Of a stretch of DNA of 41,291 nt, positions 39,236 through 40,199 are shown one piece after another; positions within the stretch are counted from its first letter, which is position 1, and every line of letters starts with the position of its first letter. Source of the DNA: a virus (taxonomy: Duplodnaviria > Heunggongvirae > Uroviricota > Caudoviricetes). Location: IMG/VR virus record IMGVR_UViG_2537562194_000035; one strand, written 5' to 3'. The translations under genes were made by a program, and so were the position numbers. The notes under the pieces are model-generated. The model did not search any database and had not been told where the DNA came from. It was given only the letters and a program-made list of their open reading frames with translations.

Positions 39236-39307
39236 ATCGAATCGATCGTTTTTGTCGATCGATTGCATGAGAAAGGCATCAACAACAAAGCAGGAGGTTA
39301 TGCGGTC
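39236..39307 (+). promoter_or_regulatory. com-mom control region with clustered Dam (GATC) sites
   Basis: GATC at 39244-39247 and 39257-39260 within palindromic ATCGATCG...TCGATCGAT, about 50-65 bp upstream of com; AGGAGG SD at 39292-39297. Confidence 0.5.
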
Positions 39308-39508
39308 ATGTATCGAAACATACGGTGCCGACACTGCAATAAGCTACTGGCACGGGCCAGTTTCAGTTATCTGGAAGTAAAATGTCCGCGCTGTAAAACC
39401 CTCAATCAAATCACATCTCCGAGCGCCACAGAGCACCCCACATACACAAGGAAATCCTGTCGTGGGGAACAGAAAGCAAGTCACATCCCGAATCATCAGC
39501 ACGCCTGA
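39308..39508 (+). CDS. com: Com zinc-finger translational activator of mom
   Basis: [35 protein letters not shown] resembles Mu Com (four Cys, CxxC...CxxC); 3' end overlaps the start of mom. Confidence 0.8.
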
Positions 39509-40199
39509 ACTTATTCGCTATAACGACAATATCGTTGGTTATGGCTCCCGTGAGTTGCGGGTTGAGACAATAAGTTGCTGGCTGGCCAGACTGGTCATCG
39601 TCAATAAACATTACAGCCACCGTTTCGTAAATAACTCCTACCTTCATCTGGGCATATTTTCAGAACGGGAACTTGTTGGCGTAATGCAATGGGGTTACGC
39701 CCTTAACCCAAACAGTGGTGCACGCGTCGTAACGGGTACGCAGAACCGAGAATATATGGAGCTTAACCGGCTATGGCTGCATGACTGTATGCCGAGAAAC
39801 TCCGAATCAAGGGCAATCAGTTACGCGCTCAAGCTAATCAGGCAGCTTTATCCGCAGGTACAGTGGGTTCAGTCGTTTGCAGATGAGCGTTGTGGCTGTC
39901 TTGGTGTCGTGTATCAGGCAAGCAATTTTGATTATGTAGGCAGCCATGAATCAATATTCTATGAACTTGATGGCGAGTGGTATCACGAGATTTGCAGGAA
40001 TGCCATTAAACGAGGCGGACAACGAGGTGAACATCTGAGGGCTAATATTGACAGAGCCAGTGTTCATAAGTTCCGACAGTTTCGTTACATCCGGTTTCTG
40101 AACAAGAGGGCCAGAAAACGCCTCAACACAAAGCTATTCAAAGTCCAGCCTTACCCAAAACCACAAACAGTTAAAACTGGTTTGAAAGAGAGTGAATGA
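39462..40199 (+). CDS. mom: Mom-like DNA modification protein
   Basis: 245-aa ORF overlapping com, last gene before the right end, as in Mu; identity rests on synteny with com and size. Confidence 0.65.

Follow-up and report, generated by a model that had tools for sequence, protein, structure and literature searches.

The DNA analysed here, virus record IMGVR_UViG_2537562194_000035 (Duplodnaviria; Heunggongvirae; Uroviricota; Caudoviricetes), is a stretch of 41,291 nucleotides (nt), hereafter the window, and is an Sp18-type Mu-like transposable prophage of Shiga-toxigenic Escherichia coli (STEC). At its right end the prophage carries, with a probability that can be put at about 0.9 from comparison of sequences, a functional Mu-type com-mom operon. 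A widespread STEC Mu-like prophage would then be equipped with a Mom system of anti-restriction that looks active, a point of relevance to the passage of such transposable phages from one E. coli lineage to another in spite of restriction. The com-mom module is already known and annotated, is ordinary in content and adds nothing new in itself; the non-trivial point is its shorter com promoter architecture, in which the Dam sites are probably placed over the -35 of the promoter itself.

The com and mom genes and their products

The com gene (39308-39508, plus strand; WP_001310452.1 in RefSeq) has an ATG start preceded by the Shine-Dalgarno sequence AGGAGG (39292-39297) and encodes a zinc-ribbon translational activator of 66 amino acids (aa). 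The ribbon has the form C-x2-C...C-x2-C, and 13 homologues all keep its four zinc ligands, Cys7, Cys10, Cys26 and Cys29. In profile searches the protein matched Pfam PF10122 Zn_ribbon_Com (1.9e-12, 46.9 bits, cut-off 22.9) and the PHROG family 'gpCom control of modification'. The mom gene (39462-40199, plus strand; WP_000528251.1, named 'Mom family adenine methylcarbamoylation protein' in RefSeq) encodes a GNAT-fold DNA adenine N6 modification enzyme of 245 aa. Its GTG at 39462 is the earliest in-frame start available and is aligned with the GTG start of the 231-aa form of Mu Mom. The two genes overlap by 47 nt (39462-39508), and the Pfam matches to both products bear out the preliminary description of this DNA, which had read them as a Com-like zinc-finger gene overlapping the 5' end of a Mom-like open reading frame (ORF). 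Indeed, a profile search of the 245-aa protein, set beforehand as the refuting test, matched Mom in both collections, namely Pfam PF25680 (4e-77, 258.9 bits, cut-off 27.1, profile positions 1-202 of 202 covered) and PHROG 1384 'Mom-like DNA modification protein' (1.4e-83). NCBIfam gave no model match for Com, for Mom or for an ORF annotated on the opposite strand upstream of com (38729-39193). Alignment with the Mu proteins (AF083977, Mu_52/Mu_53), also proposed in the preliminary description, gave 79% identity for Mom and only 47% for Com. The window shares with Mu the gene order, the position at the right end by the transposition end and downstream of gin, the com/mom overlap and the GTG start of mom.

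In phage Mu, Mom moves glycine from Gly-tRNA(Gly) onto N6 of adenine in double-stranded DNA, and the adduct rearranges to N6-carbamoylmethyl-adenine, by which many restriction enzymes are blocked. The window protein matches PDB 8BV8, the solved structure of Mom S124A, at 4.5e-124. Putative active-site residues of Mu Mom are H58, Y59, R111, S124, D149, R151 and Y159, and W48 and W181 are those whose alanine variants lost most activity (PMC13219725; the numbering is that of the 241-aa Mu Mom, 10 residues longer than the 231-aa form). In a pairwise alignment all nine are identical in the window Mom, as H50, Y51, R103, S116, D141, R143, Y151, W40 and W173, so that all tested catalytic residues are kept, and the helix-turn-helix-like insertion required for activity (Mu residues ~175-209) is ungapped and highly similar. 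The window Mom differs from that of Mu by a C-terminal extension of 12 aa and has no upstream in-frame ATG. With high confidence, it would act as Mu Mom does, as a GNAT-fold enzyme of DNA adenine-N6 modification with an anti-restriction effect. The homology to Mom and the conserved residues support the earlier view that the prophage encodes an anti-restriction DNA modification.

Predicted translational control of mom

Mu Com binds a small hairpin, the 19-mer GAAUGCCUGCGAGCAUCCC with the cores CC-N2/3-GAG and GAG-N2/3-CC, which adjoins a translation-inhibition structure containing the mom start signals (PMC6483171). The counterpart of this 19-mer in the window is a predicted Com RNA operator (39421-39439, plus strand; GAGCGCCACAGAGCACCCC) with the same cores in the forms CC-ACA-GAG (CC-N3-GAG) and GAG-CA-CC (GAG-N2-CC); its hairpin is small, with four pairs. 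The operator stands directly 5' of a translation-inhibition stem-loop (TIS; 39436-39467, plus strand) and partly overlaps its stem, in which CCCCAC (39436-39441) pairs with GUGGGG (39462-39467). The latter arm includes the GUG start of mom, and the mom Shine-Dalgarno AAGGA (39448-39452) is placed in the loop. Mu has the TIS too, with the stem CCCAC/GUGGG in common with the window, and the loop measures 20 nt in the window against 11 nt in Mu.

The preliminary description had claimed a Com-mediated translational unmasking of mom and had proposed RNA folding of the com-mom overlap as a check. The operator hairpin and the TIS were both examined across eight homologues, and both covary; the set comprised the window, Mu and Mu_3F6, a sibling with com and a methyltransferase gene, and prophages in Edwardsiella, Scandinavium, Apirhabdus and an enterobacterial metagenome-assembled genome. 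In the operator hairpin 93.8% of the cells are paired and three of the four pairs have double-sided changes, with a covariation score that was reached by no shuffle; the sole unpaired cells are a C.A combination in the window lineage. The TIS stem is paired in all eight, with a closing pair that is UA in four, CG in three and UG in one. The com/mom leader is covered by no Rfam family, the only Rfam match in the window being the ALIL pseudoknot of an IS3-family element.

According to the model that these structures suggest, Com would be translated first, from an mRNA common to mom, while the GUG start of mom would be buried in the stem-loop, and binding of Com to the operator hairpin would then free the mom Shine-Dalgarno and the GUG. 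The conserved operator and start-codon hairpin back the claimed unmasking, and at the level of sequence the Mu-type translational layer is well supported in the window.

Dam sites and a candidate OxyR half-site upstream of com

The regulatory block of com (39199-39307, plus strand) is conserved in all Sp18-type variants, and the sequence upstream of ~39175-39199 differs between E. coli variants, homology beginning only there. Within the block lies a perfect 9-nt inverted repeat (39240-39264; AATCGATCG-N7-CGATCGATT) that holds two Dam sites, GATC at 39244-39247 and at 39257-39260, as the preliminary description had noted in speaking of two GATC sites in a palindromic context. The two sites are 13 base pairs (bp) apart, and the palindrome includes a candidate OxyR half-site, ATCG-N7-CGAT (39245-39259). 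This is the only GATC pair with 13-bp spacing in the 41 kb, and perfect inverted repeats with arms of 9 nt or longer occur at only six loci of the window, the palindrome being one of them. The preliminary description was silent on three more GATCs (39087, 39122 and 39133), which are outside the block conserved in relatives. Together with them the five sites in 174 bp (39087-39260) form the densest group in the window, but this density is not significant (random placement gives at least five GATCs in some 180-bp stretch with P ~0.24), and it was rejected as evidence of a cluster.

The pair has a counterpart at the equivalent place in Mu, where AATCGATC-N9-GATCGATT is preceded by ATCAATTAAA as in the window, and by this sequence context it is homologous to the second and third Dam sites of Mu. 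Upstream of com, Mu_3F6 and prophages of Edwardsiella, Symbiopectobacterium, Apirhabdus and others likewise have a 13-bp GATC pair, which is usually preceded by a third GATC at a distance of 18 bp. The likeness of the Dam sites to those of Mu that had been described earlier is upheld as regards the homology and spacing of the pair but not the number of sites, since the conserved block has two GATCs in the window and three in Mu.

In the P22 gtr promoter, OxyR half-sites are also formed by GATC pairs 13 bp apart (PMC2909390), and the P22 sequence GATCGGTAACAACGATCAATT is comparable with GATCGGTAATACAGATCGATT of Mu, with equal spacing and similar sequence. The window shares with P22 gtr and with E. 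coli agn43 a GATC pair of this spacing inside a half-site, which in the window is a candidate one; gtr has two GATC pairs and three half-sites, whereas the conserved block of the window has one pair. A scan with the OxyR consensus retained five 37-mers of the whole window at 13/20 or more, four of which start at 39192-39223 and span 39192-39259. With scores of 13-14/20, the region upstream of com is the best of the window, the known Mu site scoring 13. Control of com-mom by Dam and OxyR is likely in view of these similarities. With moderate confidence, the Dam sites of the palindrome could form an OxyR-type half-site, so that OxyR would bind and silence the DNA in its unmethylated state, the methylated state being permissive.

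A shorter com leader region and its putative promoter

The mom promoter of Mu (Pmom) comprises a C box (TTATGCCCCAATAA, TTAT-N6-ATAA), a poor -35, a T6 run and the -10 hexamer TAAGAT (PMC3378877, PMC4461284). The alignment of the Mu and window promoters by MAFFT was unreliable, and a hand alignment anchored on the GATCs was used. From GATCGATT to the com ATG there are 70 nt in Mu and 43 nt in the window, ~20 of which are taken up by the ribosome-binding region, and the last GATC stands 78 nt from the com ATG in Mu and 51 nt in the window, 27 nt closer and an interval too short for a Mu-like C box plus promoter. Two classes can be distinguished by this last distance: a long one (76-83 nt), with Mu, Mu_3F6 and the loci L007, L008, L018 and L020, and a short one (51-54 nt), with the window, its E. 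coli variants, the Edwardsiella locus L005 and the viral contigs L035 and L086. The 13-bp spacing of the GATC pair is conserved in both. The short promoter is an alternative architecture and no private deletion, because diverged sequences share it with intact genes.

In the E. coli variants, the 13 nt after GATCGATT are variable and are followed by a conserved (C/T)ATCA(A/T)CAACAAAGCAGGAGG. A promoter could be placed here (39252-39282, plus strand), with the -35-like hexamer TTGTCG (39252-39257), a 19-nt spacer and the -10-like hexamer CATCAA (39277-39282), at which relatives read TATCAA or TATCAT. The com transcript would then start at ~39289-39290 and the GATCs would fall near -46 and -33, as is reported for GATC3 and GATC4 of P22 gtr (PMC2909390), a correspondence that depends on this predicted start; the pair would probably overlap the -35 region. 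Because ~26 nt with the Mu C box are absent, the palindrome would come to lie over the -35. Unlike in Mu, it would overlap the -35 of a weak promoter, TTGTCG-19-CATCAA, which is proposed with low to moderate confidence. A second candidate, TTGATG-19-TATCAA (39196-39226), upstream of the GATCs in an agn43-like layout, is unsupported.

A more far-reaching idea is that the com promoter of the Sp18 lineage has been rewired, the C box being gone, a Dam/OxyR half-site lying over the -35 and expression of the Com-gated cargo (Mom in the window, C5 or N6/N4 methyltransferases in sister prophages) being set mainly by an epigenetic switch. If this were true, the cargo could even be expressed in a subpopulation of lysogens without strict dependence on a late activator; with GATCs near -46 and -33, the geometry would be that of P22 gtr, whose promoter is phase-variable. 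It is quite improbable.

The late activator and its candidate promoters

The preliminary description had also made mom expression dependent on the late activator. The window has a single Mor/C-family transcription activator (11613-12038, plus strand; 141 aa, 39% identical to Mu C), whereas Mu has separate Mor and C; its product is a candidate trans-activator of the late genes. A 14-nt box, CCGCAAARCCYGCC, occurs exactly at only two places, 12043-12056 before lys (lysozyme) and 19970-19983 before the head protease gene I, each time with TAYGCT ~20 nt downstream. Such sites are probably late promoters served by the single activator. A copy with one mismatch is present at 4678. The dependence of com-mom on the late activator cannot be confirmed, because no C box, T6 run, TAAGAT or lys/I box precedes com, and the claimed dependence is not visible in the sequence; a caveat is that Pmom of Mu itself differs from the other late promoters of Mu.

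Alternative readings of the region upstream of com

Several observations weigh against a functional Mu-type operon. The ~26 nt that include the Mu C-activator box, the T6 run and TAAGAT, present in Mu, are absent in the window, and neither a Mu C box nor a sigma-70 promoter was found between the GATCs and com by a consensus scan and by comparison with Mu, the scan indicating no promoter near com. The proposed CATCAA agrees with TATAAT at 3/6 positions only, and the exact promoter position is uncertain because the best -10-like hexamers of the distant short-class relatives (L005, L035 and L086) are 9 nt nearer to the GATCs. The CCGCAAARCCYGCC box is absent upstream of com. Only one OxyR half-site contains GATCs; the flanking half-sites agree with the consensus at 6/10 positions upstream and, by a hand count, ~3/10 downstream, and the OxyR scan found no half-site above 7/10 in the region upstream of com. 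The Com operator hairpin of the window lineage has a C.A mismatch as one of its four pairs. Finally, an IS3-family insertion (8527-9740; orfA 8527-8853, orfB 8850-9740, Rfam ALIL pseudoknot 8808-8924) interrupts the early region, and therefore this copy of the prophage may not be inducible; in the otherwise matching copy of strain E2855 (L003), no transposase genes are annotated at this position. The Mu arrangement of mom expression that had been proposed for this DNA therefore stands for the gene content and the translational control but not for the promoter geometry. The missing C box, T6 run and TAAGAT, the com leader region ~26 nt shorter than that of Mu, the lack of a promoter-like site and of the late-promoter box upstream of com, and the insertion in this copy could also be taken to mean that com-mom is a transcriptionally orphaned, silent remnant, whose intact ORFs are no longer expressed in lytic growth, the C box and the Mu-type promoter having been lost. 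This is highly improbable, given that many independently inserted copies have both genes intact, with 97-100% identity, that the block 39199-39307 is conserved between variable flanks, that the short layout recurs in the diverged Edwardsiella, L035 and L086 sequences, each with intact com and cargo, and that Sp18 was judged intact (PMC2669165).

Two other readings concern the elements that would control com-mom. The com-mom promoter could be a look-alike of Pmom further upstream (39122-39171), followed by a ~130-nt leader that includes the palindrome. The look-alike has a GATC, the -35-like ACCACC, a T-rich spacer and TAAGTA, the 44-nt distance from GATC to -10 equals that of Mu, and an ungapped comparison with Mu 2691-2740 gives 26/50 identities with identical spacing; a dyad, AAAATGATCAT-N3-ATGATCGTTTT, with two GATCs also lies in this region (39117-39171). 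However, the look-alike is antisense within an annotated ORF, and it is outside the conserved com module because the homology of other E. coli Sp18-type prophages to the window starts only at ~39175-39199. It is very unlikely to be the promoter of com-mom and was set aside; the region 39117-39171 may be a relic or due to chance. The palindrome, for its part, could be an operator of a phage protein, such as a Mor/C-family dimer, or a hairpin attenuator or terminator for divergent transcription, acting as RNA or DNA, without any OxyR/Dam switch. Perfect 9+9 dyads are of the type bound by dimeric regulators, the centre of this one would be ~37 bp upstream of the start if the latter is correctly placed, near the position at which Mu C binds, and the palindrome scores as terminator-like on the minus strand, with a fold of -11.4 kcal/mol as RNA. 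This fold is not unusual, however (z -1.5), no similar dyad is found upstream of the other late operons of the prophage, and the GATCs and their 13-bp spacing are the part that is conserved across relatives with differing activators, the pair being shared with Mu although C binds elsewhere there. Such a role of the palindrome is unlikely, and the reading that is retained is that of a functional com-mom operon with probable Dam/OxyR control.

Exchange of the cargo gene behind com

Sister prophages have 97% identity to the window as far as 39475, a position 13 nt beyond the GTG, after which another gene follows. In some of them mom is replaced by a C5-cytosine DNA methyltransferase of 350 aa, and in the viral contig L086 by an N6/N4 methyltransferase of 260 aa with a DPPY motif; the mom-replaced sisters are located in L004 (4565-5816), in L030 (1934-3140) and in the viral contigs L035, L041, L049, L079 and L086. 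What they have kept is com with its promoter, the Com operator and the start-codon hairpin, whose 3' arm encodes the V-G-N with which all cargo proteins begin. The operator and the hairpin travel with com, because the breakpoint sits just after the shared GTG GGG AAC, only a few codons from the start. Operator and hairpin together would thereby be a portable translational gate that has been recombined onto at least three different DNA-modifying enzymes, as illustrated by the C5-methyltransferase variant and its sharp breakpoint.

Modules of com and a methyltransferase are known from FluMu, Pnme1 and B3 (PMC3299994). In FluMu (hin1523), Pnme1 and Pseudomonas B3 (ORF47/48), as in the window, this genome position is occupied by the gene of a DNA-modifying enzyme that follows a Com homologue and is coupled to it in translation, the enzyme being a methyltransferase there and Mom in the window. 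Com gating is not universal for Mom, because several close homologues of Mom (62-78% identical) have no com upstream in Yersinia, Serratia, Symbiopectobacterium and the Aeromonas phage pAEv1818 (L006, L009, L014-L017, L021 and L027). In phage pAEv1818, mom follows a Q-like antiterminator gene.

Probable terminators and the antisense ORF

The preliminary description had placed a strong terminator upstream of the module. An intrinsic-terminator-like hairpin is present on the plus strand (39007-39036; 13-bp stem, 4-nt loop, then the T-rich TTTCACTTTTAT), with a folding energy of -21.5 kcal/mol and a z of -5.5, and 0/200 shuffles were as stable. The claim holds for the existence of the hairpin; its position is outside the interval 39236-40199 that had been described and inside an antisense ORF (38729-39193, minus strand), which is annotated as hypothetical (154 aa, PHROG 26524). 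The hairpin is kept in two diverged relatives, and in one of them a base change and a 1-nt deletion preserve its pairing and break the ORF, which is split or frameshifted in L004 and L031. Because the changes in the variants keep the pairing but break the ORF, 39007-39036 is read as a terminator and the antisense ORF is doubtful as a real divergent gene. The hairpin probably insulates com-mom from read-through of the upstream esterase, DUF1378 and DUF826 genes. From DUF826 to com the sequence is a hotspot of variation, with small ORFs that differ by strain. Downstream of mom, the region 40190-40285 folds at -31.5 kcal/mol (z -5.7), and a hairpin flanked by an A-run and a U-run (40230-40276, plus strand), which overlaps the first end repeat of the prophage, is likely the operon terminator.

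Prophage context and distribution

The prophage genes comprise the A and B transposase genes, gam, gemA, the Mor/C activator gene, lysis, head and tail genes, and a gin-type invertase gene upstream of com. The right end (40246-40327) has three GTATCAAA repeats, at 40246, 40281 and 40303, which are presumed transposase-binding sites. The junction with the host is at 40327/40328, 128 nt after mom: identity to a copy inserted elsewhere ends at 40327, and the host slipin gene resumes at 40328, empty sites having been compared as well.

The module is the same in Sp18 of E. coli O157:H7 Sakai and its STEC relatives, and SP18 encodes Mom and its regulators at corresponding positions (PMC3299994). Of 5426 complete E. 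coli genomes, 233 have the segment 38700-40320, with many insertion sites among them; 127 RefSeq E. coli records have it at 99% identity or more, with Com and Mom annotated, and in many STEC genomes (O157:H7, O26, O111 and others) the identity is 100%. The window copy differs from Sp18 by its insertion site in slipin and by the IS3 element of the early region, and its junction in the slipin gene is common only to strains 95NR1, 95JB1 and O111:H8 8B.

Between gin and com, the window has a 3.3-kb block, absent in Mu, in which a NanS-like esterase (DUF6645 + SASA, 679 aa), DUF1378 and DUF826 are encoded (36041-38690). The esterase part of the block shares 78-81% DNA identity with genes of Stx-converting lambdoid phages (annotated there as yjhS, 9-O-acetyl-N-acetylneuraminic acid deacetylase), and by this similarity the block looks like a case of cargo exchange between Mu-like and lambdoid phages.

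Neither ARAGORN nor Rfam (gathering threshold) called a tRNA in the window; RefSeq annotates a 'tRNA-OTHER' in the identical prophage of E2855 (L003 22051-22130), which corresponds to ~19248-19327 on the minus strand of the window and has the T-arm-like GCGGGTTCAACCCCCGC. At the right-hand junction, the insertion target slipin belongs to the SPFH family, and a chimeric ORF of 100 aa (40192-40494) joins the prophage end to the C-terminus of slipin. It is followed by a gene for an RlaP-family nucleotidyltransferase (40491-41291).

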